Positions 27,540-60,065 of a stretch of 64,000 nt of DNA are shown in pieces (within the stretch, counting starts at the first letter, position 1; each line of letters begins with the position of its first letter). The notes beneath the pieces were generated by a model that ran no database searches, was not told the DNA's origin, and saw only the letters and a list, made by a program, of their open reading frames with translations. Source of the stretch: Escherichia phage vB_EcoM_KWBSE43-6. Made by a program: the position numbers and the translations under genes. The stretch lies in the sequence record NC_048186.1. One strand, written 5' to 3'.

Positions 27540-27546
27540 CTAAATA
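27540..27546 (+). promoter_or_regulatory. late-promoter-like motif CTAAATA
   Basis: Motif about 40 nt upstream of the baseplate wedge start; same heptamer recurs upstream of at least nine other plus-strand structural genes. Confidence 0.35.
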
Positions 27547-27586
27547 TCTCCAACACCATATTCAAACTTGTGTGACGGAGATCAAC

Positions 27587-29368
27587 ATGGCTACACAAAC
27601 AGTTCCTTCACTCGACGTCAGGGCTTTCGAATACATTATCAAGCAGCGTATGAAAGCTGATCCGACCTTCAAGGATTATGACTTTGAAGGATCTGGTCTC
27701 AGTGCTATCATCCGTCTGCTCGCCTCTGACGCGAATGCTATCGGCTTTATGCAAAACATGCTGAACGGAGAGAGTCACCTCCAATCAGCCCAACAACGTT
27801 CTAATGTTGGTTTGTCATCTGCATTCTTGTCGTACACTCCTGAGAACTATCAGGCGGCGTATATGTATGCAAATGTTAAAGTCACTCCATATGACGCGAC
27901 GACAGCGCCAAGCGAAATCATCATGGATCGCAAGGTTATGTTTGTTGGGGCCAAAGATGGGAAGTCTTACAACTTCACCGTTGAGAAGCCTGTGTCCACA
28001 ACCCTGCGACCAGAAGGATATTATCTTTTTGAGAATGTAAAACTCATTCAGGGTGATTGGCTTTACAAAACGTATGATGTTGAAGGTAGCGCGATCAGTA
28101 CATACAAGATCCCATCTACTAATGTAGATATCAACCATCTGGTTGTCAACGTGCAGGAATCTGAGACTTCTGATGTTTCTTACACATTTGATCGTTATAA
28201 CAGTCCGTTTGATCTGAATCAATACGCTCGTCTTTATTTCGTGGAATTGGGACTTGATGGCTTCTACACTTTTGAATTTGGGGATGGTTATATTTGCCGT
28301 CGTGTTGAAGACGGGAACGTCGTGTTCTTGCAGTATCTGGAGACTTCCGGCGCGGACGGCAACGATATCACTTCAGTTTCATCCGCGACTGCAATCGCTG
28401 GGAACAACCTGGTGGATATCGAACTCGTATCAGAAAGAAGTGCAGGCGGTACTGATCCAGAGTCCATAGAGGATACCAAGCGTCTTGCCCCTCTGAGCTA
28501 TCAGGCGGATGGTGCAGCGGTGGCCGAAACAGACTATGCCTACCTGACAGAGAAACTCTTCTCGAACGTTCTACGGGCTAAAGGCTATGGTGGAGATACG
28601 CTCAATCCACCGGACCCTGGTTATGTTTACATCGCGGTAATCCCAACAGTTGGTGAAACACTTTCCGATGCTGAGAAAGCCGATATCGTGTCTACCCTTG
28701 ACAAATACAATGTCGGTTCTATAACTCCGAAGGTTGTGGATGCTGAAGTCACATATATCCAGGTCAATACCACGATATTCTGGGATCCAACTGCTACAGC
28801 GTATGCTGAAGACGGTTTGAAAACTCTTGTCAAGAAAGGTGTAGTCACCTGGGGAACCAATAATCTTGACAATTTTGATGAGCTGTTTGACAAAGAAGTT
28901 TTGCAAAACGCCATAACAGATATGGAGCGTTCCATCGTTTCCAATATTACTTCTGTCGCATACAAGCGTCACTTCAAACCAGAATATGGTGTTCTTGACA
29001 GCTTCACGTTTGATTTCGGTCGTTCCATCAAATCTGGCTCGGTTGTTATCAACGGGTTCAAGCCGCTTCCAGCTGAAGTTGACTTCACTTATTACATCCG
29101 GGATGTAAATGGTGTTCTCAATATGTACAAGGTCAGCACTTCTGATACGACGAAGGAATATCTGGTGCAGGCTGTTGGTGTCGTTGATTATGCGAATGGC
29201 GTCGTTGAACTTCAGCAGATCACAGTGTCAAACTATGATGAAGGCGGCGCGGCGATTGTCGTGTCTCCGGAAGGATTAAACCAGAACATCCAGGTTACAT
29301 CCAATCAGGTTCTTCGTATTGGTGATGTGACCGTAGACGCGGAGGTCCGCTATGTCCAAAGATCTTAA
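27587..29368 (+). CDS. baseplate wedge protein (T4 gp6-like)
   Basis: Start MATQTVPSLDV with GGAG SD (ORF track start 27368 is an upstream extension); motif DYDFEGS matches the T4 gp6 N-terminal region as recalled. Confidence 0.7.
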   Translation: MATQTVPSLDVRAFEYIIKQRMKADPTFKDYDFEGSGLSAIIRLLASDANAIGFMQNMLNGESHLQSAQQRSNVGLSSAFLSYTPENYQAAYMYANVKVTPYDATTAPSEIIMDRKVMFVGAKDGKSYNFTVEKPVSTTLRPEGYYLFENVKLIQGDWLYKTYDVEGSAISTYKIPSTNVDINHLVVNVQESETSDVSYTFDRYNSPFDLNQYARLYFVELGLDGFYTFEFGDGYICRRVEDGNVVFLQYLETSGADGNDITSVSSATAIAGNNLVDIELVSERSAGGTDPESIEDTKRLAPLSYQADGAAVAETDYAYLTEKLFSNVLRAKGYGGDTLNPPDPGYVYIAVIPTVGETLSDAEKADIVSTLDKYNVGSITPKVVDAEVTYIQVNTTIFWDPTATAYAEDGLKTLVKKGVVTWGTNNLDNFDELFDKEVLQNAITDMERSIVSNITSVAYKRHFKPEYGVLDSFTFDFGRSIKSGSVVINGFKPLPAEVDFTYYIRDVNGVLNMYKVSTSDTTKEYLVQAVGVVDYANGVVELQQITVSNYDEGGAAIVVSPEGLNQNIQVTSNQVLRIGDVTVDAEVRYVQRS

Positions 29369-30203
29369 TAACGGACATCTGGGCGTCAAATATGAGACGC
29401 CGTTGTTCTACCAGAACGATTTCCCTCTGTTCATTGAGTTCATGGATACGTTCTTCAATTGGCTGTATCGCCAAAACGGTTTCACTGAAGAAGAAATCCT
29501 TGCTTACCTGGCGGACACCAGTTGGCTGAATCCGGCTAGTGACGCCAGCCCGCTGATGCAGCTGGTAGACCTGAAGATACAGAAGACGCCCGGTACTGCT
29601 GTGCGTGATATGCTCCTCGACAAATATCTGGTCAGGACATTTGAGCAAATGATGGCGCTTGATACTGAAGAATTGTTGGACTCTGATGGGCGTCCTCTAT
29701 TTTCACCTGAAGACAAGAATTCAAGTATTGATGCCTGGTATAAAGAATTCGGGTTTCAAAGAACGGTTGACAAATCTTTTCCTGAATTTGGGTTCTTTGT
29801 ACCAGAAGGATCTGATGGTCTTATTACAGCGGATGGCAACCAGTTCTCGGTTTATATCGAGGGAACGCGCCGCCGGACATTAGATCACACCCGCTGGCTG
29901 AAATTGTTGAAGCATATCTATAAAATACGGGGAACGCAGAAAGCAATAGAATTGTTCTTCTGGATTTATTTCGGTGTTCCAGTTACTGTATATTATCCGA
30001 AAGAAGATTTGGCTGGTTTGGATGCTAACTTTGATTGTGATGGTGAAGTTGGTCTTCGTGATGATTACTACTATGACGAATACACATATGTCATAAGAAT
30101 ACCTGGCGACGTCGCAGATTTCGAAGGTGTATTCGATCGCGTGTTCCGTCAACACTTCCATCCATCTGGTTTCAAAGTATTCCTCGAAAGCACTAGGAGT
30201 TAA
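29352..30203 (+). CDS. baseplate/tail structural protein, hypothetical
   Basis: 283-aa ORF overlapping the end of the gp6-like gene; placement in baseplate module. Confidence 0.5.
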   Translation: MSKDLNNGHLGVKYETPLFYQNDFPLFIEFMDTFFNWLYRQNGFTEEEILAYLADTSWLNPASDASPLMQLVDLKIQKTPGTAVRDMLLDKYLVRTFEQMMALDTEELLDSDGRPLFSPEDKNSSIDAWYKEFGFQRTVDKSFPEFGFFVPEGSDGLITADGNQFSVYIEGTRRRTLDHTRWLKLLKHIYKIRGTQKAIELFFWIYFGVPVTVYYPKEDLAGLDANFDCDGEVGLRDDYYYDEYTYVIRIPGDVADFEGVFDRVFRQHFHPSGFKVFLESTRS

Positions 30204-30207
30204 GAAA

Positions 30208-31461
30208 ATGGCTGATTATCTGAGCAAATATACAGGCCAGCAGATAGATAGTATTCTAGATGCGGTCGATGGAAAACTGAACAAAACTGATGTCGTGAAC
30301 GATATCACGGTAGATGACGACCTGTCCCCGGCGTCAGCACACCTTACGTTCGTCTTAAAATCTGCTATCGATACAATGAACGATGTTTTGACCAACAAAG
30401 TTGTTCGTACCGATGGGCAAGAACAAACGATAAACGGGAAAAAGACTTTTGCGTCTGTTCTGAATGCAAATGGTGGCATCGTAGTCCCGGCCCAACGCTC
30501 TATAACGATCACGGATGAACCTGCGGCCAACACGGATGCGGTGAACCTCAGCATGTTGAAAAAACATGGGCTGAGCACTGTGGATTCCGTTGGTTCTGGT
30601 TCTGGTCTGAAGATTTCGTTGCTTTCCAATGGTTACAACAAATTGGAAGTCGATCTCTCTAATCTTGTCGTGAGGACAGACACAGCGCTCCCTCAATCGC
30701 TGGCTGTGTATTCACCCACAGGTGGGTCACAAATATGGTCTATGACAAGCCTGTTCAACAGTTTTTTCGCTGACACTCGTTTCAACGACTACGTGAAGGT
30801 CGTGGAATATGATTCAGATATGCTGAACATTGAAACGCAATTCACTAGCGTCAACAACCGCATAAATCTGAAACTGGATACTGCGACATATACGACGAAA
30901 ATGACCAGTCTGGATTCTCAGATAGCGAATTTACAATCTGGGAAAGTGGATAATACGACGTATACGGCGAAAATGACAAGCCTTGACAGTCAAATCAGCG
31001 GCCTGTCTACGAATAAAGTTGACAAATCGACGTATGACACCAAAATGGCTAGTTTAGACGGTCAAATCAGTGATCTGACTACAAACAAAGTCGATGTGTC
31101 GACGTACACTACTGATATGAACGCCTTGAATTTGGCGCTGGCGGGTTCGGTGAAATTGGCTAAAACCAACACCACCAGTGTTTCTGTCCCGGCTTCTGGT
31201 AGTGCTGCGTTACCTGATTTCACTTTGGTGAATCTGTGTCAAATTTTGATTACAGCCAAATGGGGTACATTGGTTGATACGTTCTTGGTCACAATGACGT
31301 ATGACGGTACTCTTCAGGCAACGTCATTGACACAAAAAAGTACGGCGGGGACTTTGTCGTTCGCAGGTTCTGTTGTTTCAGGTAAACTACGCCTGACAAT
31401 GACCAATGCTAATACAACAACCGCAGCATCTGTCGATTATTCACTTCGTGCTTCTTTCTAA
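30208..31461 (+). CDS. tail fibre protein with tandem 24-aa repeats
   Basis: Start MADYLSKYTGQQ with AGGAG SD; three and a fraction tandem repeats YTxKMTSLDSQIxxLxxxKVDxxT. Confidence 0.65.
   Translation: MADYLSKYTGQQIDSILDAVDGKLNKTDVVNDITVDDDLSPASAHLTFVLKSAIDTMNDVLTNKVVRTDGQEQTINGKKTFASVLNANGGIVVPAQRSITITDEPAANTDAVNLSMLKKHGLSTVDSVGSGSGLKISLLSNGYNKLEVDLSNLVVRTDTALPQSLAVYSPTGGSQIWSMTSLFNSFFADTRFNDYVKVVEYDSDMLNIETQFTSVNNRINLKLDTATYTTKMTSLDSQIANLQSGKVDNTTYTAKMTSLDSQISGLSTNKVDKSTYDTKMASLDGQISDLTTNKVDVSTYTTDMNALNLALAGSVKLAKTNTTSVSVPASGSAALPDFTLVNLCQILITAKWGTLVDTFLVTMTYDGTLQATSLTQKSTAGTLSFAGSVVSGKLRLTMTNANTTTAASVDYSLRASF
30889..31140 (+). repeat. tandem in-frame 72-nt repeat (about 3.5 copies) inside tail fibre gene
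   Basis: Copies begin at 30889, 30961, 31033, each starting tatacg/tatgac...aaaatg. Confidence 0.7.
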
Positions 31462-31468: not shown

Positions 31469-31509
31469 ACTAAATACCCCTAGACGATTACATGTGCTAG
31501 GGGTATTTT
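31469..31509 (+). promoter_or_regulatory. CTAAATA motif embedded in a 12-bp leader hairpin immediately upstream of tailspike start
   Basis: aaatacccctag...ctaggggtattt stem ending 4 nt before ATG 31513; no SD between hairpin and ATG. Confidence 0.4.
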
Positions 31510-31512: not shown

Positions 31513-34500
31513 ATGGCTAATAAACCCACGAAACCAAATTTTCCGCTTGGGCTTGAATCACAAGATCAATCCGTATTTCAAGAAGGTATTCTGAATAATG
31601 GTGTTGTAGAACATGGCCCAGATGCGGTAATGACTGTGCCAGAAACTCCTGACGCATCTGGGGTTCCTTCTGCTGTCCGTTATAACGAAGATGACGACCA
31701 GTTTGAAGGCTATTACAACGAAGGCGGTTGGTTGCCGCTTGGGGGTGGTAACGGTGGGCGCTGGGAACTCCTTCCGCATGCCCCCTCTTCCTTGTTACAG
31801 CTCGGTCGTGCATATCTGGTGGATAACACTGACGGTGCCTCTACGGTGGTTTTCCCTCCCCCTAAACGGGTTGGTGATAGCATCACTGTGTGTGACCTTT
31901 TTGGTAAATTCTCAACTTATCCTCTGACTGTTGACGGTAACGGTAAATCGATCTATGGCTCTGCGGATAGCATGACGATTTCTACCGATAACGTCAGCGC
32001 GACGTTTACGTGGACTGGTGAATCCCGTGGCTGGGTTATTACATCAGGCGTCGGTCTGGGACAAGGCCGGGTTTATAGTCGCGAAATTTACAGCCAAATT
32101 CTGTCAGCGACAACACCATCTATTACCCTGAGCACTCAACCATCTATTGTAGATGTGTATGTTGACGGAAAACGTTTGAAAGAATCCCTGTATACTCTCG
32201 ACGGGTATGAAGTTAAATTCGATCCGGCGCTGGCCTCTGGTTCTGATGTGCAGATTATTCAGTACATCCCAATTCAGCTCGGCGCGGGCGGTGGGGGTTC
32301 TGGTGGAACTGTAATCACCTGGGAATACAACGGCGGCTCAGCTATCGGCGGAGAAACCCAAATCGTGTTGGATGTGGTCGTGGACTCAGTATCTGAGATC
32401 TACATCCGTGGTTCCCGTCAACAGATAGGGCGCGGGTTCACATTTGATCCTGCCACCAGTACGATTACCTTGGCGGATGAACTGGATGCCGGGGATGACG
32501 TTGTCGTCGTTATCAACGGTGACCCAACGGTCTACAACCAAATAGATCGCACTCCTTGGGAAGTTGCTCGGGCGTTTAACGTCTCAAATAACAGCGTCAT
32601 TATGAGCAATGACAGGAATACTACCCTTGACGGGAAAACGATAGTATACGATATTAACAGTCAAAACTCTTGGGAAATTCCTGCTGGTATTCCTGTTGGC
32701 GCTAAAATATCAAGTGTTTCTTCAGGGATTCTTGTGTACACCCCTGGTAACGTCAGTGTCACATTGACATTGTTGACGACGGGTACTACTGTTCTGAAAC
32801 GCCTCGCCAATAGCAATTCTGGTAACGGCGGTGATATGGTTCTTTACAAAGCATCTTCAAATGCTGTGGAAAGAGCTATTTCTATGGCGTTGAAAGATTT
32901 TGTAAACCTCCATGATTATTATCTGTCTTCTGATAACGGAGATTGGTATCCTGCATTTAACAGGGCTTTCCAAGATTCCCAAAATATTTTAGTTCCTTAT
33001 GGTTCTCATGTTGTCAAAACCACGGTTGTTCCACCATCCAATTCAAAAATAATTGGTCTTGGGGAAGCCAGTATCGTTAAATCACCAGATGCGATTGACG
33101 CCGCCGCCACAAACCTCGTTACCGTGTTTCGGGCTACTGGTTCAGATAATATATTGATTTCTGATATTACAATAGATGGTGGTGTTAACGAAGTCAACAC
33201 CGCCAAATCCTTTACACGAACTGTAAGGTTCATTAATTGTACCAACGTGTCGTTGCTGAGGGTTCGAGTATTAAACAACGCGGATTGGTCGACATCGTTC
33301 GAAGGCGGTCATGACTTTACGGTGAAGAATTATTACCAAAGATCGTATCGTTATCAGAACACTGCTATCAATTTGAATGGTGGACGTGATGGCCTACATT
33401 TCATGGATTGTTATAATGTGAATGCAGACGGCCTTGACATAGAATCTGGTGATGATTGCGTGGGTATCACCACTACTGGTACAGATCTTGAAAATATCAC
33501 GATTCGTAACCTGTGGGGTTCATCCAATATTGCTTCTCTCGTTATTTTTAACGAAGAAAAAGATTCTAACGATGTGTACTATTCAGCTAATGTCACTGGA
33601 TTGAATATTAGTGGTATCAGGATCAAGAAAGGCGGCAACGCTCGAAATATCGTCAGGGTTATAGGATACGGTGCCAACACCCAAATCAAAGATGTTTCAA
33701 TCTTGGATGTAAGGGGAAAAGCCTTTAACTCTTATGGTATTTGGGTGCAAGGTAGCGTTGACCATCCAGTAGACACAGTACACATAAGCAATTCAGACGT
33801 TGGTTCACAACAGGCCCACGGCGTTCTGTTGCAGAATATAAAACGTTTGTCCGGTAACGTCTATGGTTATTATGAGGGTGTGAATTCTTCCGCTTCATTT
33901 GTTGGTGTGAACATGGTTTCGATCACTGGTGCGATGTTCACTCCAGGTTCTAGAAGTTCTTACGGGTATGGTGTACAAGTTCTGACCAGTAAAGATATCG
34001 TGCTGACACCTGATATCGAAAGTTGCGGCGCTGGGTTGTTCAGCTCTGCTTCTGGGGGTAATTTACGAATAGTAAACTGTGATGGTGTAACCATACCTTA
34101 TGGCCGTGCCGTCGGGGACGTGGCTGTCAGCTATTGGGGTATCAACTTCGGTGGAAATACAAATTTAGACGTGGGTCTGGAATTCGTGTTTGGTGGGTTT
34201 ACCAACTCGTCTCTCCCGAACTCTTATTATTTAAAAGCCCCAGCAGTTGATATCAAATGGAAAGAAGCGTCTGACGGGACTGTGACTATGAGTATCGCTC
34301 GTGGCGCCAGTATAGTCAGAAACAGCCAAGGCAATTTTACAATAACGTTCAACAATGATATGCGCAGTACATTGTTTTCTTGGCAGGCGACCGCCTATCA
34401 CAATGGCGCGTTACGTTTAGTTCGTCTTGCTTCTGCTGTGGGGACTAAAACGATGACGATACAAGTAACGGATACGGCAAATGCCGCGACGTTCGCTGAT

Positions 34501-34542
34501 TTTATAGAATTGAAAGCGTTTAACACTGCTACAGGATCTTAA
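31513..34542 (+). CDS. tailspike / tail fibre protein with beta-helix (pectate-lyase-like) repeats
   Basis: 1009-aa ORF; Gly-rich linker GAGGGGSGG; repetitive NxSGIRI / DVSILDV beta-helix-like coils. Confidence 0.75.
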   Translation: MANKPTKPNFPLGLESQDQSVFQEGILNNGVVEHGPDAVMTVPETPDASGVPSAVRYNEDDDQFEGYYNEGGWLPLGGGNGGRWELLPHAPSSLLQLGRAYLVDNTDGASTVVFPPPKRVGDSITVCDLFGKFSTYPLTVDGNGKSIYGSADSMTISTDNVSATFTWTGESRGWVITSGVGLGQGRVYSREIYSQILSATTPSITLSTQPSIVDVYVDGKRLKESLYTLDGYEVKFDPALASGSDVQIIQYIPIQLGAGGGGSGGTVITWEYNGGSAIGGETQIVLDVVVDSVSEIYIRGSRQQIGRGFTFDPATSTITLADELDAGDDVVVVINGDPTVYNQIDRTPWEVARAFNVSNNSVIMSNDRNTTLDGKTIVYDINSQNSWEIPAGIPVGAKISSVSSGILVYTPGNVSVTLTLLTTGTTVLKRLANSNSGNGGDMVLYKASSNAVERAISMALKDFVNLHDYYLSSDNGDWYPAFNRAFQDSQNILVPYGSHVVKTTVVPPSNSKIIGLGEASIVKSPDAIDAAATNLVTVFRATGSDNILISDITIDGGVNEVNTAKSFTRTVRFINCTNVSLLRVRVLNNADWSTSFEGGHDFTVKNYYQRSYRYQNTAINLNGGRDGLHFMDCYNVNADGLDIESGDDCVGITTTGTDLENITIRNLWGSSNIASLVIFNEEKDSNDVYYSANVTGLNISGIRIKKGGNARNIVRVIGYGANTQIKDVSILDVRGKAFNSYGIWVQGSVDHPVDTVHISNSDVGSQQAHGVLLQNIKRLSGNVYGYYEGVNSSASFVGVNMVSITGAMFTPGSRSSYGYGVQVLTSKDIVLTPDIESCGAGLFSSASGGNLRIVNCDGVTIPYGRAVGDVAVSYWGINFGGNTNLDVGLEFVFGGFTNSSLPNSYYLKAPAVDIKWKEASDGTVTMSIARGASIVRNSQGNFTITFNNDMRSTLFSWQATAYHNGALRLVRLASAVGTKTMTIQVTDTANAATFADFIELKAFNTATGS

Positions 34543-34543
34543 C

Positions 34544-34780
34544 ATGAATATAAATTGTGTTTTTGTGAAAGACGAAATTCCCCTTGAGAAACAAGATGAC
34601 TTTTTGAAATTATTTTTGGAAAGAATATCATTGGAATTCTCTGATGTCGTGATAACGGCAGAATGGGGAGACGATGAAACTGCTGTCGTTTCAGAGGATT
34701 GTTCTGATTACGTCAAAGCAAATTATCAAAGATTTGTAGACGGTCTTAAACAAGACCTCATTATTTTCGATTATTTCTAA
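34544..34780 (+). CDS. small acidic hypothetical protein
   Basis: 78-aa ORF starting 2 nt after tailspike stop. Confidence 0.45.
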   Translation: MNINCVFVKDEIPLEKQDDFLKLFLERISLEFSDVVITAEWGDDETAVVSEDCSDYVKANYQRFVDGLKQDLIIFDYF

Positions 34781-34819
34781 ACTAAATACCCCATATTGGT
34801 AACGCCTTATGGGGTATTT
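34781..34819 (+). promoter_or_regulatory. CTAAATA motif embedded in an 11-bp leader hairpin immediately upstream of tailspike start
   Basis: aaataccccat...atggggtattt stem ending 4 nt before ATG 34823; no SD; near-identical architecture to 31469-31509. Confidence 0.4.
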
Positions 34820-34822
34820 CAA

Positions 34823-37402
34823 ATGGCCAGAAACATAGAAGAAATTTTCGGTGGGGTAGTCGTAGCACCACACCAGATCCCGTTCACGTACACTTCAACA
34901 AACGGTGGGGAAACTTTTATATCTCTGCCATTTTATCCCATCACCGGGTTCGTTACTATCAACGGTGGTGTACAGGTCCCTCTTGACAATTTCGAAATAG
35001 ACGGAAACACATTAAATCTTGGTCGAGAACTGGATCCAAGTGATGTTGTGTTCTGTTTGTTCGATAAAATCATGTCACCTCAAGATGCCAGTAACAACGC
35101 AGTTCGAGTTTATAAATTCATCTCTGTTGGAGGAGAAACGGAATTCACTCCAGATTTTACGGCGTATGGTGTCCAATCTCTTTATATCAATGGGAAATAC
35201 CAAATAGCTGGTGAGGATTACACATATTCTAAGACAGATGGGAAAGTTTCTTTTACTACCCCATTAGTTACTGGAGTATGGGTTGCAGCTGAGATGAACA
35301 TAAAGCAAAATATCCCCGCTTTAGCTGGCAATAATGGCGCATCACAAATCGGAACAGAATCAGGGCAAAATGTTCAATTAGAACTCGATTCATTCCGTAA
35401 TTTGTTCGGGGAATATGGGTTTAGCATGATAGGGCAAACCACATATCAAGGATTGAGGAATTATAACGGCAATTCCAATTATATGATGATATATGGTAGA
35501 TCCTATCTTCTAGATGGTGGTCATGGTATATTTGATTTAGTTCCTGGCGGTAATGCCATGACAACCCCTGACGATGATTGTGTGCATATTCGAGATACGT
35601 TGGGGCGGTTATGGCGTCGTAGATTTGAAGACAATGTCATAAGAATGAGCTGGGCGGGTGCTAAAAACCAATTAGAAACATCATCACCACAAGATGATGC
35701 TTTCAGGAACTGCCTGCTTGCGGCCAAATCGTTGTCTCCTACTGGTTATCCACAATCAATCATTAAAGGATTAGACCGTGGTGTAGTTTATCTTGCAGAG
35801 CGGCATTATATCCGTTGTGGTAATTTCCCTGAATATATGGCGTGGAAATTGCCACCTACTGGTGGTGGTGACCGTTTTGGGCTGGATCTGCTGTGTGCAT
35901 TGGGAGAAGGGGCGGGGTTCTTTATCGTCCAAGCTAATAACCCATTGTTGCGCGTCCGGGTAGACAACACTGGTATCCCATTCAATGTTTCGAATTATAC
36001 TGATGCCCAACTTGTGAGTATAGTTGAGAACAATTATATCTTACGTTTGGAATCAATGGTGAACGCTCCGGAATTCGACGTTCATCCAGGTAATTATCCC
36101 GGTACTGTTCTTTACAGCACGGGTAAAAAGGATTATTCTGCAGTAACTGCACAATGGCCTGATTTGGTCCAAGTCTTACCGTCTATACAGAACGTCGGTA
36201 ACGCGGTGTTTAACATAAAAAACTGTGGTCGAGATTTTATGTTAACCAATACTGGGGCTGGGTTGGGTCATTTTCATTCCGTTTGGTCACAAAATAACCG
36301 ACTCCCTGGTTATATATCGAACTGCTATGATTTAACGATGACATATGAAGATTATGTCCCACACAACGAAACATCTGGTGGATTGATATTTAGTGAATGT
36401 GGCACTCTTTCTTTAGAAAATATTTTGATTGGCGCAGGTGGGGTAGGACATTTGTGTATATGGGATTGCCGTAACGTCCATATGAACCGTCATATCTCTA
36501 TATGTGGTAATACCACTTGGGCTGCATCTAACCAAGTAGATGATCTTTATGCTTTAGAAATTTGTAACTCCGAAGTTCATATGAGCGGCGTGCATGCTCA
36601 AAACTCTGGTAAATTCGCACGTGTAGGATTCAATTCACAATTAACGGTTGATCACCTTACTGCATGGGATGTTTCAAAATTATTCTTGATGACGAATGAT
36701 TTGACTAAATTGAAATATCGTGGGCAGCGGCAGGCTGTTACAGGGGACCCGAGCCGGATTTATGTGACATCAGGATTCGCTCAAAACCTTAACGCATCTC
36801 AGTTCGGTTGGGCTTGTGCTCCTGTAATAGAAATCGACAGCACAGTTAACGGTGATTTCAAATTTTATTGGAATTGCTGGACCAATAACGTTCATGCAGG
36901 GTATGGATCTGAATCTGAAGCAAATCTTGCTATTATTAGCGTGGCTTCTACAAGTTCTACAGGATCTGTGTCATTCGGCGAAGACGCTAAATTGGAAGGT
37001 AATACGACGAACTACGTCCTTCGTCTTGCAAACAAAAACCAATTGGGGAAAGTGCGCACTCGTCAAACATCTTTCTGTCGTGTACGTTATACCAATGACA
37101 ACTCACAGTCATCTTTTGCAATGCGCGAAGCTGCTCATGACAATGGAACTACTGTGATCCCTATTGACGGAACAACATACAGCTATCCGTACCGCAGACC
37201 TGCTAAATATTTCGTATCTTTAAACGTCCCTGCTGGTGGTGGTTCATGCTCAGTGACATTAAACGGTATGACGATTTTCCAAACTACGGTAGTCGGGACA
37301 CATGGTATAGTTATTGAAATGAAATACCAAGAAACCGTCGTGTTTACGTCATCCAACGTTACTGTATCGAATGCGCAGTGGCGTTATATTTTGGAGGAAT
37401 AA
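34823..37402 (+). CDS. tailspike protein (beta-helix)
   Basis: Start MARNIEEIFGG (ORF track start 34796 is an upstream extension); large beta-rich repetitive protein in tailspike array. Confidence 0.7.
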   Translation: MARNIEEIFGGVVVAPHQIPFTYTSTNGGETFISLPFYPITGFVTINGGVQVPLDNFEIDGNTLNLGRELDPSDVVFCLFDKIMSPQDASNNAVRVYKFISVGGETEFTPDFTAYGVQSLYINGKYQIAGEDYTYSKTDGKVSFTTPLVTGVWVAAEMNIKQNIPALAGNNGASQIGTESGQNVQLELDSFRNLFGEYGFSMIGQTTYQGLRNYNGNSNYMMIYGRSYLLDGGHGIFDLVPGGNAMTTPDDDCVHIRDTLGRLWRRRFEDNVIRMSWAGAKNQLETSSPQDDAFRNCLLAAKSLSPTGYPQSIIKGLDRGVVYLAERHYIRCGNFPEYMAWKLPPTGGGDRFGLDLLCALGEGAGFFIVQANNPLLRVRVDNTGIPFNVSNYTDAQLVSIVENNYILRLESMVNAPEFDVHPGNYPGTVLYSTGKKDYSAVTAQWPDLVQVLPSIQNVGNAVFNIKNCGRDFMLTNTGAGLGHFHSVWSQNNRLPGYISNCYDLTMTYEDYVPHNETSGGLIFSECGTLSLENILIGAGGVGHLCIWDCRNVHMNRHISICGNTTWAASNQVDDLYALEICNSEVHMSGVHAQNSGKFARVGFNSQLTVDHLTAWDVSKLFLMTNDLTKLKYRGQRQAVTGDPSRIYVTSGFAQNLNASQFGWACAPVIEIDSTVNGDFKFYWNCWTNNVHAGYGSESEANLAIISVASTSSTGSVSFGEDAKLEGNTTNYVLRLANKNQLGKVRTRQTSFCRVRYTNDNSQSSFAMREAAHDNGTTVIPIDGTTYSYPYRRPAKYFVSLNVPAGGGSCSVTLNGMTIFQTTVVGTHGIVIEMKYQETVVFTSSNVTVSNAQWRYILEE

Positions 37403-37404
37403 TA

Positions 37405-37704
37405 ATGATTAAAGCAATCAAAGGGGATTTCACTGCTGTAACTTCAGTAGGAGAAATTTCATATCAATACGCTACTGTCCAGACTTTTCGGGGAGATGCA
37501 ACGAGCGTGACCGTAGATGTATTTCTTTCCGATCGCTGGATTATCCAACGGGACGGGATCAATGTGGTAGATGATACTGCGCCTGGATTTTTCAAATCTG
37601 TACAGTTTGCTCCTGATTGGCAGAGCAGTTTGAATATCATAGATCAGGCTTATGAATATTTGAAAAGTCTTCCAGAGTTTTCAAATTCTACTGATGTTGT
37701 ATAA
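37405..37704 (+). CDS. hypothetical small protein
   Basis: Start MIKAIKGDF with GGAGG SD. Confidence 0.5.
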   Translation: MIKAIKGDFTAVTSVGEISYQYATVQTFRGDATSVTVDVFLSDRWIIQRDGINVVDDTAPGFFKSVQFAPDWQSSLNIIDQAYEYLKSLPEFSNSTDVV

Positions 37705-37738
37705 AGTTAAGGGGGCTAGACCCCCTTAACTTATTTTT
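37705..37738. terminator. bidirectional terminator hairpin
   Basis: agttaagggggctagacccccttaact followed by tatttttc. Confidence 0.65.
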
Positions 37739-37976
37739 CTATTTGTACAACAATCCCGTTTTCTTTTAAAACAGCTTCCAATTGCTCAATATGTAGCCTT
37801 AAATTTGAGTAGACGGTCGCTGCGATCAAAATTTCTTCACTTAATTTAACAGGTGAGTGAAGTGCGTCTATGTTAAAATTTCCTCCTGACGCAATAACTT
37901 TTCCATCTTCGTTAAATGTGTAGATGCAAGGATCTGGTTTATTTTTCTTAATCTTTATCAGTATTTCTTGTTTCCC
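37731..37976 (-). CDS. small protein on opposite strand within tailspike cluster
   Basis: ORF track 37731..38096; likely start MGKQEILIK at 37976 with GGAGA SD; flanked by bidirectional terminator. Confidence 0.45.
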   Translation of the reverse strand, partial: GKQEILIKIKKNKPDPCIYTFNEDGKVIASGGNFNIDALHSPVKLSEEILIAATVYSNLRLHIEQLEAVLKENGIVVQIEK

Positions 37977-38049
37977 CATGATACATATCTCCAGCTGACT
38001 ATGATTTGTACAAACATTGTACCCGAAACCGTTCGTTTGGAATAATACA

Positions 38050-38056
38050 CTAAATA
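38050..38056 (+). promoter_or_regulatory. late-promoter-like motif CTAAATA
   Basis: Located 39 nt upstream of ATG 38095. Confidence 0.35.
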
Positions 38057-38094
38057 CAAGAATCAAGCCACAGAAAAACAACAGGAGATTCATC

Positions 38095-40098: not shown

Positions 40099-40101
40099 TT
40101 T

Positions 40102-40347
40102 ATGCAAAATTCGGCTATGCGTGATGCGTTATCTCTATTTTATGCTTTATACGACTATTTGGTAAACAAAGTGGAATTGACAGAAACAGAAGAATCTGTC
40201 AAATCTAAAATAGAACAAGATATGGGGATACGTTGTGATGATTCATTGGATGAGCAAATCCTACAACTGCAATCAGAACTAAACCAAGCAGTTGAAGAGG
40301 GAGAACGTCACCAAATCTTAGATAATGTGGTTGAACTTTTGAAATAA
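40102..40347 (+). CDS. small helical hypothetical protein
   Basis: 81-aa ORF followed by terminator. Confidence 0.45.
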   Translation: MQNSAMRDALSLFYALYDYLVNKVELTETEESVKSKIEQDMGIRCDDSLDEQILQLQSELNQAVEEGERHQILDNVVELLK

Positions 40348-40349
40348 CA

Positions 40350-40375
40350 AAGCCCCTTCGGGGGCTTTTCTTTTG
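40350..40375 (+). terminator. rho-independent terminator
   Basis: agccccttcgggggct followed by tttcttttg. Confidence 0.65.
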
Positions 40376-40381
40376 AACAAA

Positions 40382-40388
40382 CTAAATA
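40382..40388 (+). promoter_or_regulatory. late-promoter-like motif CTAAATA
   Basis: Located about 40 nt upstream of ATG 40429. Confidence 0.35.
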
Positions 40389-40428
40389 CAAGGAGACATT
40401 GTTAGAAAAACAACATGAGGAACCACCC

Positions 40429-43238: not shown

Positions 43239-43265
43239 TAGCCCCCTCGGGGGCTTTATTCTTCA
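43239..43265 (+). terminator. rho-independent terminator
   Basis: agccccctcgggggct followed by ttattcttc. Confidence 0.6.
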
Positions 43266-43286: not shown

Positions 43287-43293
43287 CTAAATA
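43287..43293 (+). promoter_or_regulatory. late-promoter-like motif CTAAATA
   Basis: Located 35 nt upstream of ATG 43328. Confidence 0.35.
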
Positions 43294-46300: not shown

Positions 46301-48166
46301 ACTTACACGTACACGGATACAACCACCACTTCACTTTCTGGCGAACAGATTGTTGAAACTCAGGTTATTCCGTACATGCGTTCAATCGAAATCAACTTTG
46401 ACGCCAGCGGCCTGCGCCCGTTCACCAGAATGTATGCATTCTTCTCTGGTCGGGATGTGAATCTGTACTGCAAACCGAACGGCGGGGCATATGGTGCACC
46501 GTTGACGACGGACGCCAACGGTAATCTGAAAGGTGTATTCAAAGTTCCGCAGAATAACACCATTAAATTCAATACTGGTGACAACGTCTTCCGGTTAACT
46601 GACAGCCCGACTGATAGCAAGTCTGCTGATGATACTCTGACGAATGCCGAGATTGTTCATAAGTCCTTTGGTAAGAAACAAGGTATCCAGAAGACCTATG
46701 TTAACACACGTGTCCTGGGTTATACTGTATCGACTAAATCTGAAACAACTTCGTCTGAAGCCGTTGTTGGTCAGTGGCGTGATCCTATCGCACAATCTTT
46801 CATGGTGGCGACCAGCATCGGTGGTGAATACATTGAAGGTGTGGAAGTGTTCTTCTCAAGCAAATCACGTGATGTTCCAGTAACTCTGGAAATCCGTGAG
46901 ATGAGCAATGGCCTTCCGGCAAGTACTGTTATCACCCGGAAAACTTTGAACCCGTCTGACGTCAAAGTATCGAATGACTCTTCCCTCGGGACGAAATTCA
47001 CTTTCGATTATCCAGTATATCTGCAGGCTGGCACAGAGTTTGCTATCGTTCTTCTGGCTAACACCCAGGATTACAATGCTTACATTGCAGAAATGGGTAA
47101 AAAGAATTTGCTGTCGAACGAATATATCGCCAAACAACCGTATACTGGCGTGTTCTTCACCTCGTCAAACGGTTCAACCTGGTCTCCAAACCAAATGGCG
47201 GATATGAAATTCCGTGTGTATCGCTGTAATTTTGCTGCTGCCGACAACGTGGTGACATTTACTCCGAACGCCGGGCCTAAAATCCGTCCTCTTGGTCTGA
47301 ACGTGTTGAACTGCGTCAACGGTTCTACTGTGGTCACAGTTTACGCACCGGGCCATGGTCTTGTTGCGGGCAACTCTGTGACGTTGTCAGAACTGACGGG
47401 CGGCTGCGGCTTTACCGCAGAGCAACTGAATAAAGTTCACACTGTCACGGATGCGAGCTATACTTCATTCAAGATTGATGTTGGCGCAGCTGCGGACAGC
47501 GATGGACAGATTGGTGGTGAAGACGGTTCTTTCTTGGGCAATTACCTGGTAGATATGTTCTATGCCAGCGTGACCAATTCAGCCCTGGAAGGTTCTATAT
47601 TGAAACTGGAATACCGTTATCGTGATTCTACTTCCAATTCTATGTCTGATTGGGCTGAGTTTGAATCTGATACTGATGTTCCTTTGCCAACAGAAGGTAT
47701 TTATCGTCAGGCTGGGGATTTCCAGGTAAGAGCCACCATGACTCGCAGCGCGAGCAATGCGTACACGGCACCAATGATTGATGGTGATGACTTAACCGTG
47801 GTTCTCAACTCGCATGGCGTAGATCCTTTCGAGGACGTTTTCCGCTATGTGACCAAGGACGTAAGTTTTGACAACCCGTGTACAACTTTGAAAATGTACT
47901 TCGGCGCGATGTTGCCTTCTCAGTCCACCATGACTGTACAGGTCAAACTTCTGCGCCCAGGGCAAGAAATGGATTCGATCGAATGGGAAACGGTTACGCC
48001 GAATTCTCCTCTGGTCAACGATGGTTCCGCATTCTTTGAATATGAATACGATAAGACCGTCGACAGCAGCAGTCCATTTTCAGCCCTGAAAGTCAGAGCA
48101 TTAATTCGCGGAAGCCGGATAGCCCCACCTTCCTGCAAAGATTTCCGCTTGATTGCTCTGGCATAA
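43328..48166 (+). CDS. very large virion structural protein (about 1612 aa), baseplate or fibre component
   Basis: Uninterrupted ORF; start MQQLNLNRRPYWDDWN with GGAG SD; Thr/Ser/Gly-rich beta-type composition; position between tailspikes and neck genes. Confidence 0.65.
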   Translation: MQQLNLNRRPYWDDWNPEKRFSRILFRPNPIKVQTRELNQLQTILQDQIEKIGNHLFKDGSMVIPGGLTITNSAVSMKFQLAGGSEFTDLEGIQELYVIGKDNNAKARVLSLERYTSEPDMMFCILEMTESGTADGFSPNDNLYFNTYDVNDNFIRIGYGVAQTVGGSIVARMTKGVYFVRGFFLDVDDDMLVVNKYANNTSHRVGFKVTEEIVTEEQDSSLFSNAQGTPNTKAPGAHRLRLDLSLQAFDYDAEVEDFVELAKIKDGKIQSMVTQSTYNILEDTMAQRTYEQAGDYNVSTHQIDLREHLKENNNGGVYTPAEGGDESKLVAVMKPGISYVRGRRIENVGEELVVIDKARDTDLLNNTPVAVATGNFLTTKNSKGVPVISRSIRYKLLNASGVTQATALCISADRTGTEFRLYMRDLVVTGDMSTVTKVAYEESGTTMFSAALETNQFSQSSSMDLIFELPVFGVKTLAPTGTIDINYTVLRSYKITLDASGNGSISAPLGYSFSPEFSLYSGAKSDGTAAQIDISSSLSLTGTPVGSALQISLGSGNALQSINLLALMVRTTAIIKTKTVTTATETVIFTNQASIQLANHDGYKLTSVKNANGADVTSNFTLDGGQRDAAYYKSSLISATGAISGAYTVEYTYFAHSTGDFFTADSYTSIDYKSIPNYTSSTSGTVYGLADSIDFRPKITNGASDTDMVRPNTAIIMDVEYYLPRIDAVYLADNGVFNVARGISSNNLAAPAIPANAMRLYELLIPPYTPDIDDIQIRTIDNRRYTMRDIGKLDTRISNVEYYTTLSQLESSAMTQQVFDPVTGNPRYKNGIAADPFKDFRLIDDLSSDWMGSVDTDNGRLRPFVQQNAIDLVPDGWDKVMDGMVVCKYTPEISVNQEYATTTINVNPYAVFNWTGFLKLNPTTDYWFENYYVAPRVINETINTRGAVQEGTVYGTWRTVSVSERVWEPHGAGGVWWGYRYRTTVSTRDVSTYTYTDTTTTSLSGEQIVETQVIPYMRSIEINFDASGLRPFTRMYAFFSGRDVNLYCKPNGGAYGAPLTTDANGNLKGVFKVPQNNTIKFNTGDNVFRLTDSPTDSKSADDTLTNAEIVHKSFGKKQGIQKTYVNTRVLGYTVSTKSETTSSEAVVGQWRDPIAQSFMVATSIGGEYIEGVEVFFSSKSRDVPVTLEIREMSNGLPASTVITRKTLNPSDVKVSNDSSLGTKFTFDYPVYLQAGTEFAIVLLANTQDYNAYIAEMGKKNLLSNEYIAKQPYTGVFFTSSNGSTWSPNQMADMKFRVYRCNFAAADNVVTFTPNAGPKIRPLGLNVLNCVNGSTVVTVYAPGHGLVAGNSVTLSELTGGCGFTAEQLNKVHTVTDASYTSFKIDVGAAADSDGQIGGEDGSFLGNYLVDMFYASVTNSALEGSILKLEYRYRDSTSNSMSDWAEFESDTDVPLPTEGIYRQAGDFQVRATMTRSASNAYTAPMIDGDDLTVVLNSHGVDPFEDVFRYVTKDVSFDNPCTTLKMYFGAMLPSQSTMTVQVKLLRPGQEMDSIEWETVTPNSPLVNDGSAFFEYEYDKTVDSSSPFSALKVRALIRGSRIAPPSCKDFRLIALA

Positions 48167-48449
48167 ATAAAATTGAAATGGCGGGGGATTCCCCCGCCCT
48201 CTTGAGAGGATATGTGTATGCGTGGAATGAAAGTACAGGGGCACGCATCAATGGTACGCAGTAGCTCTTGCCCCGGAGCAATCATCTGCACTGACCATGT
48301 TGCTGGAATGGCGGCGCTTCGGTCTCGCCAAGATACTGAACAAAGAGAGGCTAAGATTGCTGCGCAATCGGCCCAAATTGATCAGCTTGAAGCAACCGTT
48401 AAAATGTTGGCAGAAAAACTCGGGATTACAATCCCGGACGGGGGCGAAA

Positions 48450-49529: not shown

Positions 49530-49558
49530 AAAAGCCGGGGTTTCCCGGCTTTCTTTTA
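49530..49558. terminator. bidirectional terminator hairpin
   Basis: agccggggtttcccggct with T-runs on both strands. Confidence 0.6.
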
Positions 49559-49768
49559 GAGTTTGATATCCCGAGGGCCGGGTAGCGCAGTCGCCTGAAT
49601 ATACCCATCATGGACGTTATTACTGTCCCACCATTCAATGAAGTCATTCCCGTCAGATTGTTTTACCAAACCGACGATATCATAATCACCACCTGCAATT
49701 TTAGCATCCACACAGATGATTCTTACTCGACTTCCATCACGAGTTTCTTTGATATCTTCTACTTGCAT
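49556..49768 (-). CDS. small protein on opposite strand within neck module
   Basis: 70-aa ORF MQVEDIKETRDGSRVRIICVDAK... with protein-like composition, bracketed by terminator and late promoter motif. Confidence 0.4.
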   Translation of the reverse strand: MQVEDIKETRDGSRVRIICVDAKIAGGDYDIVGLVKQSDGNDFIEWWDSNNVHDGYIQATALPGPRDIKL

Positions 49769-49796: not shown

Positions 49797-49827
49797 CGAC
49801 TAAATACCTTCAAAATTGAGGGTATAG

Positions 49828-54055: not shown

Positions 54056-54062
54056 CTAAATA
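54056..54062 (+). promoter_or_regulatory. late-promoter-like motif CTAAATA
   Basis: Located 43 nt upstream of sheath ATG 54105. Confidence 0.35.
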
Positions 54063-56033: not shown

Positions 56034-56068
56034 CGGGGTAAATAATATCGGCAACCCGGAGATTTGAA

Positions 56069-56524
56069 ATGATATTTGCATACAAAATTGAAATGATATC
56101 TAACAACAAGGTCTACATCGGTGTGACCAATGATCCGCAAAGGCGATATGAGCAACATTTGGCCAATGCATTTCAATATAATGTTGAAAGTGAATTGTAT
56201 GATGCCATGCGCAAATATGGGGCTTCCGCTTTTACTTTCGTGATTATTGCTCAAACCGATGAAGTCCACAAATGGGAATTGGAAAAGCAATTAATTGCTC
56301 AATACGATTCTTATGAATTGGGCTACAACATGAATAAAGGCGGTAACGATGGAAGTCATCTGGTTGGTAAAGCTGCTGCTAAATTGACCTCCACTGGAGA
56401 ACATATTGGTATGGTCTCATTAATTGATCCACGTTGGGATCTCTGTGAGATTGAACCAGTACGGAACAATGTTGATCATGGCTTTGATCTCAGTAAATTG
56501 ACGATCAAAAGATTAACAGACTAA
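56069..56524 (+). CDS. GIY-YIG family endonuclease (Seg-like free-standing homing endonuclease candidate)
   Basis: N-terminal YKIEMISNNKVYIGVTNDPQRRYEQH and downstream YNMNKGG match GIY-YIG motifs; inserted between sheath and tube genes. Confidence 0.7.
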   Translation: MIFAYKIEMISNNKVYIGVTNDPQRRYEQHLANAFQYNVESELYDAMRKYGASAFTFVIIAQTDEVHKWELEKQLIAQYDSYELGYNMNKGGNDGSHLVGKAAAKLTSTGEHIGMVSLIDPRWDLCEIEPVRNNVDHGFDLSKLTIKRLTD

Positions 56525-56558
56525 TTAGAATTGTGTAACTCTTTTTGGAGAATGTATA

Positions 56559-57092: not shown

Positions 57093-57160
57093 CGTTACAC
57101 GTGGTGGGGGAATTTATTTCCCCCTCACTAATTACAAGAAAACGTTGAGGACATATAATC

Positions 57161-58843: not shown

Positions 58844-58855
58844 AAATTTTATCAA

Positions 58856-58862
58856 CTAAATA
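58856..58862 (+). promoter_or_regulatory. late-promoter-like motif CTAAATA
   Basis: Located 28 nt upstream of ATG 58890. Confidence 0.35.
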
Positions 58863-58889: not shown

Positions 58890-59054
58890 ATGAGCGCGAT
58901 CGATATTGTTCGAGCCGTACTGGATGGTGACATCGAAAATGCCACGGCAGAATGTGGTATGGAACTTGATGCCCGCCGTGAAGAACTGATTGCTCAGGGT
59001 ACAGAATACGTTCTGAATTCCCTGGGTGACGATCTCAGCACTGGCGCGGAATAG
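58890..59054 (+). CDS. small acidic protein, 54 aa (prohead core protein candidate), not in ORF track
   Basis: Manual translation MSAIDIVRAVLDGDIENATAECGMELDARREELIAQGTEYVLNSLGDDLSTGAE; GGAG SD; position matches T4 gp67/gp68 slot. Confidence 0.45.
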   Translation: MSAIDIVRAVLDGDIENATAECGMELDARREELIAQGTEYVLNSLGDDLSTGAE

Positions 59055-59063
59055 GTGATTAAT

Positions 59064-59372
59064 ATGGAAATCAAAGAAATTGCCACGTTCGCTGATTTCC
59101 TGGCTTCCCGCATGGACGAACAGAAAGTCATCGATAAAGTGAACGCAAAAGGTAAACGCCGTCGTCGTTTAAAATGCGCTCCTGGATTCAAACTTTCCGC
59201 TGATGGTTCTCGTTGTGAAGTCATGAACGCCAGCGAGCGTCGTACCCGTAAACTGGGCAACCGGAAAGCCATACGCGCTAAAAAACGTATGGGCCTGGGG
59301 TATGAACGCAAAGTGGAGCGGCGTAAAAAGAAAGCCATGAAGTTCCGTAAAATGATGGGACTGAGCAAGTAA
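59064..59372 (+). CDS. basic prohead core protein candidate (gp68-like by position)
   Basis: Start MEIKEIATF; highly basic C-terminal half. Confidence 0.45.
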   Translation: MEIKEIATFADFLASRMDEQKVIDKVNAKGKRRRRLKCAPGFKLSADGSRCEVMNASERRTRKLGNRKAIRAKKRMGLGYERKVERRKKKAMKFRKMMGLSK

Positions 59373-59379
59373 GGAGCAA

Positions 59380-60048
59380 ATGATGAAACTGTTGCGTGAG
59401 ATCACGGCGATAGGAAAGGAACTTCAGATCGGGGAAGCGCAAACTTCCACTGGTGGGAAGGCCATGTTCATCGAAGGTCCGTTTGTGATGTGTAACCAGG
59501 TTAACCGCAACGGGCGCAACTACGACCTTGAAAAAGTCGGTCGCCCTGCTGTGGAAGCATATGACCGGGAATACATTCAAGATCGTCGCGCAATCGGTGA
59601 ACTCAAGCATCCTGACTATCCATTTCCTGATATCGAACATGCCGCCCTCAAAACCGAGTCACTCGTGTGGCAAGGCAACAATGCAATCGGGCGGGCGCGT
59701 ATTTTAAACACCCCCAAAGGTCAGATCATCCGTGCTCTGGCTGATGCGGACTTCAACCTGGCTGTCTCTACACGTGGCCTGGGTGAGACAGTAGAAGTTA
59801 ACGGCTATGATGACGTCAAGCCGGGCTTCATGCTTACCGCTGTTGATGCTGTCGACCGTCCTTCTGGACAAGTTTGTTATGTAAAAGCGGTTCACGAATC
59901 TGTAGACTGGCAACTTGATGAATCCTCTGGTATCTGGATGCCTCGGGACATCAAAGGTCAGGTTGTAGACAATCTGGTTAAACACAATAGCCAGCTTGAA
60001 GACGACTTCCTGCGCCGTCTTGATTTAGCTCTTAAAAAATTGGGTTGA
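59380..60048 (+). CDS. prohead core protease (T4 gp21-like)
   Basis: 222 aa; QVNRNGRNY and GELKHPDYP...GRARIL...STRGLG resemble T4 gp21 as recalled. Confidence 0.85.
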   Translation: MMKLLREITAIGKELQIGEAQTSTGGKAMFIEGPFVMCNQVNRNGRNYDLEKVGRPAVEAYDREYIQDRRAIGELKHPDYPFPDIEHAALKTESLVWQGNNAIGRARILNTPKGQIIRALADADFNLAVSTRGLGETVEVNGYDDVKPGFMLTAVDAVDRPSGQVCYVKAVHESVDWQLDESSGIWMPRDIKGQVVDNLVKHNSQLEDDFLRRLDLALKKLG

Positions 60049-60058
60049 TTTCAGCTCA

Positions 60059-60065
60059 CTAAATA
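60059..60065 (+). promoter_or_regulatory. late-promoter-like motif CTAAATA
   Basis: Located 29 nt upstream of scaffold ATG 60094. Confidence 0.35.

Follow-up and report, generated by a model that had tools for sequence, protein, structure and literature searches.

What does the heptamer CTAAATA do in the genome of Escherichia phage vB_EcoM_KWBSE43-6, and which factor would read it? We addressed this question in a stretch of 64,000 nucleotides from sequence record NC_048186.1 (in the following the window), in which the motif recurs a few tens of nucleotides upstream of genes for virion proteins. A preliminary description of this stretch had compared the motif with the late promoter of phage T4. 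In agreement with this comparison, we find that the CTAAATA sites are very likely the late promoters of this member of the Ackermannviridae, to be read by a sigma factor of the gp55 type. To map the genes of the window, we used tblastn to carry over the annotation of two Klebsiella phages, UPM 2146 and Menlow. Over a 20-kb piece the window is 94–96% identical to UPM 2146, Menlow, KpS110 and 0507-KN2-1, all Klebsiella phages of the genus Taipeivirus, the tailspike genes being the exception. By this likeness the window is assigned to the genus Taipeivirus, family Ackermannviridae.

The window holds 16 copies of CTAAATA, compared with 6.16 ± 2.27 expected, and none of 100 shuffles reached this number. 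The strong result is, however, the position of the copies rather than their count: In 13 of the 16 the motif ends 23–42 nt before a start codon on the same strand. Finding 13 of 16 copies within 15–60 nt upstream of a same-strand start corresponds to a binomial P of 8e-14, while 104 other heptamers of the same composition, when pooled, occupy this position in 6.1% of cases. The only heptamers that came near were shifted versions of the CTAAATA sites themselves and TCAATAA, which is part of the early-promoter motif. The early/replication block (positions 1–17000) contains no copy on either strand. Such a distribution fits a late promoter. Structural or morphogenesis genes follow ten of the 13 sites, and within the late block (27233–62371) 15 of the 16 intergenic gaps of at least 25 nt hold the motif or a variant with one mismatch. 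The remaining three copies lie inside tailspike genes (37203 on the plus strand, 36387 and 42412 on the minus strand); with about 6 chance copies expected in the window, these are probably due to chance.

The 157-kb genome of Menlow holds 17 copies of CTAAATA, compared with a mean of 26 for heptamers of the same composition, and 16 of the 17 are located directly upstream of a start codon. Menlow coding DNA, as delimited by our own gene calls, contains 2 copies, where about 9 (Markov order 3) or 21 (permutation mean) would be expected. Stray copies of the motif thus seem to be avoided in Menlow. Concentration before genes and avoidance elsewhere is the pattern expected for a very short promoter. 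Besides the sites that it shares with the window, Menlow carries CTAAATA before the genes of a UvsW helicase, a RuvC-like resolvase, a baseplate tube cap and a homing endonuclease.

All ten plus-strand sites named in the preliminary description were recovered, with the motif end 23–42 nt before the start. The first one (27540..27546) is a predicted late promoter of the gene for a gp6-like baseplate wedge protein (start 27587); the same site exists in Menlow, and the promoter probably also serves the reading frames at 29352–30203 and 30208–31461. Predicted late promoters likewise precede the four tailspike genes, here called a to d. The motif of tailspike a (31470..31476, start 31513; Menlow 28587) and that of tailspike b (34782..34788, start 34823) read CTAAATAcccc, and the cassette at tailspike b is found again at Kuttervirus tailspike genes. 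Tailspike c (start 38095) follows a motif at 38050..38056 and tailspike d (start 40429) a motif at 40382..40388, which begins 14 nt after a terminator-like hairpin (40349–40368). Another terminator-like hairpin (43240–43255) precedes the site at 43287..43293, the predicted late promoter of a VrlC-like gene of 1616 aa (start 43328) with orthologous sites in the loci L007, L008 and L010. The neck gene gp14 follows CTAAATAcctt at 49800..49806, with orthologous sites in L007 and L008; this predicted late promoter probably also serves gp15 and the terminase genes TerS and TerL. The tail sheath gene (start 54105) is preceded by its predicted late promoter at 54056..54062, and either CTAAATA or CTAAGTA is found before the sheath gene in four of four distant relatives. 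The site at 58856..58862 is the predicted late promoter of a small open reading frame (ORF) with start 58890 and probably drives the genes for the scaffold and the prohead protease as well, and the last of the ten (60059..60065) is predicted to drive the gene for the prohead core protein gp22 (start 60094).

Nine of the start codons given for these sites in the preliminary description were correct; the seventh, for gp14, had been placed at 49828, while its ATG lies at 49830. The list was also incomplete in that three minus-strand sites of the same geometry had been missed. The first of these, CTAAATAcccc at 18652..18658 (Menlow 16836), ends 29 nt before the ORF start 18622, and the TAA within the motif is at the same time the stop codon of the upstream ORF. 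The second, again CTAAATAcccc, at 19138..19144 (Menlow 17325), lies 27 nt before the ORF start 19110. The third (23726..23732) is located 33 nt before a small ORF (23692..23501) upstream of six tRNA genes. Over all 13 sites the motif is preceded by A in nine cases, C in three and G in one, in line with the earlier remark that A or C is the usual neighbour.

The architecture of the sites is that of late promoters of the T4 type, i.e. a single A/T-rich, −10-like element without a −35 element. The position matrix of the 16 promoter-position sites contains no conserved base upstream of −14 and no −35 element, and a sigma-70-type scan for two hexamers spaced 16–18 nt apart gave zero matches on any CTAAATA site. 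The consensus is aCTAAATA (C at −12 in 13 of 16 and A at −13 in 9 of 16 sites) and thus departs from the exact T4 consensus TATAAATA. TAAATA is preceded by C at 13 of 16 promoter positions and at 3 of 12 places elsewhere, such that the C is preferred but not obligatory. The numbering follows from the T4 complex, in which gp55 flips out the adenines at −12, −9 and −8 and accommodates the −12 adenine in a pocket (PMC7892883). Only one register of TATAAATA fits these flipped bases, with the last A at −6; in this register the C of the phage motif stands at −12 and the predicted start is the sixth base after the motif. In the octamer alignment T(−13)A(−12)TAAATA(−6) the A preceding the phage motif replaces T(−13). 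The likeness to T4 put forward in the preliminary description therefore holds for the shared TAAATA, but the C had been assigned to the first base of the T4 consensus, while it replaces A(−12), the second base. Downstream of the motif the first two positions are rich in C and free of G, and the fifth to seventh positions are rich in A, which fits a start about 6 nt downstream.

To see the element outside the genus, we compared the sheath-gene neighbourhoods of Kuttervirus 3HA11, Miltonvirus 3M (51.5% G+C), Vibrio phage K490 and Ralstonia phage RSP15, the sheath proteins of K490 and RSP15 being 48% and 46% identical to that of the window. All four relatives carry CTAAATA or CTAAGTA 20–50 nt upstream of orthologous late genes, within flanking non-coding DNA that has diverged; in RSP15 most sites read CTAAGTA. 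The enrichment in the oriented upstream position persists in each of the four loci. An orthologous motif with persisting enrichment in four distant relatives indicates that the element is a property of the family. We also aligned the upstream regions across genera with MAFFT but rejected the result, as the motif was misaligned for K490 and RSP15; the raw upstream sequences are the better evidence.

A longer form of the motif, CTAAATAcCcc, is the published regulatory motif of the Ackermannviridae (‘Viunalikevirus’; PMC7283392), and both the motif and its reading are already known. The window, an Ackermannviridae genome, has the identical heptamer at 13 oriented sites, part of them with a C-rich tail: ‘cccc’ follows at 18652, 19138, 31470 and 34782, and ‘cctt’ at 49800. 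Because a ‘cCcc’ tail is present at only 4–5 of the 13 window sites, it is probably the 5′ arm of a hairpin (see below) and separate from the promoter. The motif reportedly goes back to the proposal of the genus Viunalikevirus by Adriaenssens et al. (2012, Arch Virol 157:2035).

Sites with one mismatch extend the set. On the plus strand, CTAAGTA is located 40 nt before the major capsid gene (61002..61008, start 61049); Kuttervirus has the same variant and Miltonvirus 3M has CTAAATA. CTAATTA lies 31 nt before the tail tube gene (56521..56527, start 56559), with CTAAATA at the orthologous place in 3M, and again 26 nt before the portal gene (57128..57134, start 57161), for which 3M and K490 have CTAAATA and RSP15 has CTAAGTA. 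ATAAATA is found 48 nt before a virion protein gene (48163..48169, start 48218), the orthologous sites in L007, L008 and L010 reading ATAAATA, TTAAATA or CTAAATA. GTAAATA precedes the gene of a GIY-YIG homing endonuclease by 24 nt (56038..56044, start 56069), and CTAAATA stands before the endonuclease genes of Menlow and Kuttervirus. On the minus strand, ATAAATA (22212..22218) directly follows a terminator-like hairpin (22255–22232) and lies 32 nt before the ORF 22179..21943. This site and the one at 48163 are the only two in the window with ATAAATA in promoter position. In Menlow, ATAAATA or TTAAATA precedes the genes for a gp5-like hub with lysozyme, a hub subunit, a gp2-like end protector, a tube-like protein and the endolysin. 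Individually, single one-mismatch variants are weak evidence.

Late transcription of the T4 type relies on phage-encoded gp55, gp33 and gp45, and homologues of all three are found in Menlow. The gp55 homologue (L004:34351-35121, 256 aa) adjoins gp47/gp46 and matches PHROG 234, ‘late sigma transcription factor’, with an E value of 4e-54. The gp33 homologue matches PHROG 254, ‘late promoter transcriptional regulator’ (E 7e-22), and gave no PDB match by sequence; the gp45 clamp homologue matches PHROG 223 and the PDB entries 1CZD/1B77. The database contains 51 gp55 homologues, for which Ackermannviridae records use the name ‘sigma factor for late transcription’. The phages CBA120, ViI and AG3 were reported before to have the same three proteins (PMC3184105, PMC3121705), and earlier papers had also looked for T4-like late promoters.

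The sigma proteins themselves were compared as well. The T4 pocket residues N13, R57, F86 and T99 serve the −9 and −8 adenines, both kept in CTAAATA (PMC7892883), and are invariant in 51 of 51 Ackermann-type homologues. A short segment differs, reading NFFS[W/Y] in Ackermann-type gp55 and NP[H/F]AY in the T4 type: At position 94 (P94 in T4) all 51 Ackermann-type homologues have F, a residue that none of 150 T4-type cluster representatives has there, and position 97 is W in 51 of 51 Ackermann-type proteins and Y in 148 of the 150, T4 Y97 being the residue that stacks on the flipped −12 adenine. The gp55 homologue of K490 (L011:1267-1923) reads NFFSY, yet CTAAATA precedes K490 late genes. We therefore rejected W97 as the determinant of C(−12), as the motif of K490 is the same with Y97 in its place. 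Across the sequences F94 and S96 continue to go with the motif, as a correlation only, and K490 provides a useful natural control for models of how the −12 base is read. Taken together, the positions of the sites, the missing −35 element, the conservation in the family and the Menlow homologues support the preliminary proposal of a gp55-type late sigma factor with slightly altered specificity, the sigma gene lying outside the window.

At some sites the motif is embedded in a hairpin. Upstream of tailspike a the hairpin AAAUACCCCUAG..CUAGGGGUAUUU (31472..31508, plus strand; −18.6 kcal/mol, z −3.75) holds the last five motif bases in its 5′ arm and the GGGG ribosome-binding site in its 3′ arm. 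Hairpins of the same design are found at the tailspike b promoter (34784..34819, plus strand; −19.2 kcal/mol, z −3.3) and at 19112..19142 on the minus strand (−19.0 kcal/mol, z −4.3), the latter corresponding to an annotated terminator of Menlow (L001 8252-8282). In all three cases (sites 19138, 31470 and 34782) AAATA and the following CCCC(A/T).. pair with ..GGGGTATTT directly before the start codon. In a shorter hairpin (49805..49824, plus strand; z −6.0) the bases 3′ of the motif pair with GAGGG, the ribosome-binding site of gp14; a looser version exists at 27540, and the hairpin of the Menlow endolysin gene is built alike, its 3′ arm holding a perfect GGAGG. A strong hairpin with T's behind it is present at 3–4 of the 13 sites and at none of the other 9–10, and the Menlow depositors annotated the equivalents as terminators. 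The promoter-embedded hairpins were missed by a simple terminator scan, apparently on account of an overlong loop or a stem that reaches into the T-run. Among the relatives examined the stems hardly differ, such that there is no covariation signal to score.

Predicted folding suggests what these hairpins might do. In read-through RNA the ribosome-binding site is nearly fully paired at 19138, 31470 and 34782, and none of 60 shuffles of the 5′ part gave an equally low accessibility. In RNA from the predicted late start the ribosome-binding site of the same three genes is largely free. The effect is marginal at 49800, where 5% of the shuffles were as low, and at 27540. Hiding of the ribosome-binding site was thus rejected as a general property of the sites, as it is clear at 3 of the 13 and marginal at 2 more. 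Since a hairpin accompanies only 3–5 of the 13 sites, it is not part of the promoter.

The following mechanism would account for these observations. Host core RNA polymerase would carry a phage sigma factor of the gp55 family and read the single −10-like a-C-T-A-A-A-T-A, which corresponds to −13 to −6 of T4 TATAAATA, with no need for a −35 element. A gp33-like co-activator and the gp45 sliding clamp would help the polymerase; clamps left on replicated DNA probably boost it, and the CTAAATA late promoters are probably coupled to replication. Transcription would start about 6 nt downstream of the motif and give 5′ leaders of about 17–36 nt. The late region would be built of short units, each composed of a terminator or gene end, a promoter and one to four genes, and every one of the four tailspike genes would have a promoter of its own. 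At 3–5 of the 13 sites a hairpin AAATACCCC...GGGGTATTT would have the promoter in its 5′ arm and would stop RNA arriving from upstream or silence its translation; RNA from the late promoter would be free of the 5′ arm and leave the ribosome-binding site accessible. That the sites are active as promoters and depend on gp55, where and how late transcription starts, and what the hairpins do is inferred from the patterns described.

Several points weigh against this mechanism. The major capsid gene, the most heavily expressed late gene, as well as the portal and tube genes carry one-mismatch variants only, and such a variant is expected by chance in about 1 gap in 8, according to a rough estimate from heptamer frequencies. 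Several of the genes served (starts 18622, 19110, 23692 and 58890) have no assigned function. The gp55, gp33 and gp45 genes lie outside the 64-kb window and are known from relatives only, and T4 gp55 itself (PDB 7D7C chain F) is matched only weakly by the Menlow homologue (E 0.003). The hairpin is found at only a minority of the sites, as described above. Finally, the searchable literature contained no start-site mapping or transcriptome of any Ackermannviridae phage.

These points leave room for other readings. The sites might be used by the host sigma-70 holoenzyme, either alone or together with some other phage activator as in T4 middle transcription, with TAAATA as its −10 element and the gp55 homologue uninvolved. 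TAAATA indeed resembles TATAAT at 4 of 6 positions. However, a −35-like or TG-extended element is missing and the sigma-70 scan matches none of the sites, while a separate sigma-70-like element, TTCAATAA-N12-14-TAnnAT, stands before early genes (PMC7283392), i.e. two motifs serve different gene sets. In addition, ViI-like phages have no MotA or AsiA homologues according to the CBA120 paper (PMC3184105), and we consider an involvement of sigma-70 improbable. Still less can be said for CTAAATA as a terminator feature, in which AAATA forms the A-tract or 5′ arm of intrinsic, possibly bidirectional, terminators and there is no promoter at all. The pairing of AAATA with a downstream TATTT in strong G+C-rich hairpins followed by T's, at 19138 (minus strand) and at 31470 and 34782 (plus strand), would be in agreement with it, as would the terminator labels given by the Menlow depositors to equivalent hairpins. 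Yet the pairing is confined to 3–5 of the 13 sites: The motif is kept without a hairpin at the sheath, gp22 and VrlC-like genes and at tailspikes c and d, and between genera conservation covers the heptamer but does not extend to the sequence 3′ of it. Moreover, separate conventional terminators stand directly upstream of the motif at 40349–40368 and 43240–43255, and a terminator would need neither a fixed CTAAATA nor a fixed distance to the start codon, which makes this explanation very improbable.

Least probable of all appears an action of the heptamer in RNA, as a processing site or translational signal within a late 5′ leader whose start lies further upstream. The short and fairly regular distance to start codons could be read in this way, and the family encodes RegA-like and RegB-like regulators that act at the RNA level (PMC10892097). 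This distance nevertheless varies from 23 to 48 nt, and at several sites a terminator directly upstream of or overlapping the motif would leave little upstream RNA. Furthermore, 6 of the 7 bases match the DNA element read by T4 gp55, and the avoidance of the motif inside genes on both strands is a better fit for a signal in DNA. Even taken together the three alternatives are unlikely, and late promoters read by a gp55-type sigma factor remain the best explanation of the sites.

A more specific form of the late-promoter reading may be formulated, which we put forward as a tentative and rather doubtful proposal. The shift to C(−12) and A(−13) would reflect a re-shaped gp55 pocket of the Ackermannviridae, whose NFFS[W/Y] segment has F94 in 52 of 52 Ackermann-type and 0 of 150 T4-type proteins. 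Some late promoters would be built into hairpins that both terminate transcription and hide the ribosome-binding site, and each tailspike gene would thereby be an insulated, swappable cassette expressed only from its own late promoter.

The motif allows late transcription units to be annotated in any Ackermannviridae genome; in the window, the motif and its variants give about 19 promoters. This should be useful for engineering phages for therapy or biocontrol, for example when depolymerase tailspikes are swapped together with their own promoter. The sites also represent a natural specificity variant of a minimal gp55-type sigma factor, and comparison with the T4 cryo-electron microscopy structure could reveal, base by base, how a −10-like element is recognised. 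Current understanding is left unchanged by the finding.

The gene map into which the sites fall has three parts. Positions 1–15650 (minus strand) contain rIIB, rIIA and a replication block ending with the DNA polymerase gene. A mixed region with seven tRNA genes at 22308–23995 (minus strand) follows up to about 27230. The unbroken virion gene block (27587–62371, plus strand) begins with the gp6-like baseplate wedge, the four tailspikes, the VrlC-like protein of 1616 aa, the neck genes gp13 and gp14, and gp15; it continues with TerS, TerL, the sheath, the GIY-YIG homing endonuclease, tube, portal, scaffold, protease, gp22 and the major capsid gene. The single exception within this plus-strand block is an antisense ORF of 70 aa between gp13 and gp14 (49556–49768, minus strand), for which Pfam gave no match; conserved copies exist in UPM 2146, Menlow and Kuttervirus. 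The tailspike genes (31513–42705) match those of relatives only in their N-terminal, particle-binding parts (17–38% coverage), and their receptor-binding parts found no close match among 50,697 phage records. Behind three of them stands a small ORF (34544, 40102 and 42972; about 80 aa each) with no Pfam match. Further upstream, two plus-strand ORFs of 180 and 123 aa (17232–18145) are without counterpart in UPM 2146 or Menlow, gave only a sub-threshold match in Pfam, and appear to be an insertion between conserved genes. The ORF behind the 19138 promoter (18655–19110, minus strand) matches the ADP-ribosyltransferase domain ART-PolyVal and DUF3990 weakly, with scores short of the curated cut-offs.

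A second, early-promoter-like element, TTCAATAA-N12-14-TAnnAT, is found 50–70 nt upstream of early or unassigned genes, at 5592, 8145, 12359, 21411, 26655 and 27295 on the minus strand and at 16577 and 63324 on the plus strand. It matches the published TTCAAT[N14]TATAAT (PMC7283392). At 5592, 8145, 12359 and 21411 a strong terminator-like hairpin with T's behind it has the −10 hexamer in its loop. Between 23692 and 23732 (minus strand) a late-type CTAAATA overlaps an early-type TTCAATAA..TATGAT ahead of a 63-aa ORF; the six tRNA genes downstream of the 23726 site are Ser, Ser, Asn, Tyr, Tyr and Gln. The overlapping motifs suggest early as well as late transcription of the tRNA cluster.

Beside the tRNA cluster lie three further elements of about 120–130 nt on the minus strand (24003–24123, 25000–25132 and 25170–25300). 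Each has a near-perfect closing stem of 18–22 bp, with minimum free energies of −43, −52 and −67 kcal/mol and z values of −4.5, −6.1 and −7.5, respectively. The element at 25170–25300 holds two hairpins that resemble T-arms (CCGGUUCGAAUCCGG). The element at 25000–25132 occurs, mostly unannotated, in Kuttervirus phages of Salmonella and E. coli with 70–76% identity, and pairing of its 20-bp closing stem is kept through 3–4 double changes. Neither ARAGORN nor Rfam called anything in the three elements, which may be tRNA-derived or Y-RNA-like non-coding RNAs.

Apart from the published family motif, the known systems closest to the sites include the late promoters of T4. These, too, consist of a single −10-like element (TATAAATA) without a −35 element and precede virion genes, and they share with the phage motif 6 of 8 bases over the octamer, namely TAAATA, or 6 of 7 over the heptamer. 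The differences concern the upstream end: In T4 position −12 is the flipped adenine and −13 is T, whereas here −12 is mostly C and −13 mostly A. In both T4 and Menlow the gp55 gene adjoins gp47/gp46, though T4 gp55 has 185 aa and the Menlow homologue 256 aa, with weak sequence likeness. The uvsW and resolvase genes of T4 carry late promoters as well, and CTAAATA precedes their Menlow counterparts. The T4 genes e, 49, soc and I-TevI are said to have a late promoter inside a hairpin that hides the ribosome-binding site (McPheeters 1986, Barth 1988, Macdonald 1984, Gott 1988). A similar design is predicted at 19138, 31470, 34782 and the Menlow endolysin gene, where RNA from the late start would likewise lack the 5′ arm. 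Unlike those T4 cases, the hairpins here are followed by a T-run and thus resemble intrinsic terminators too, both effects being predicted only. A lineage-specific variant of the gp55-type late promoter is also known from T4-like cyanophages (NATAAATA-type; cited in PMC3184105). There the A at −12 is kept, and the varied position and base differ from those of the Ackermannviridae motif.

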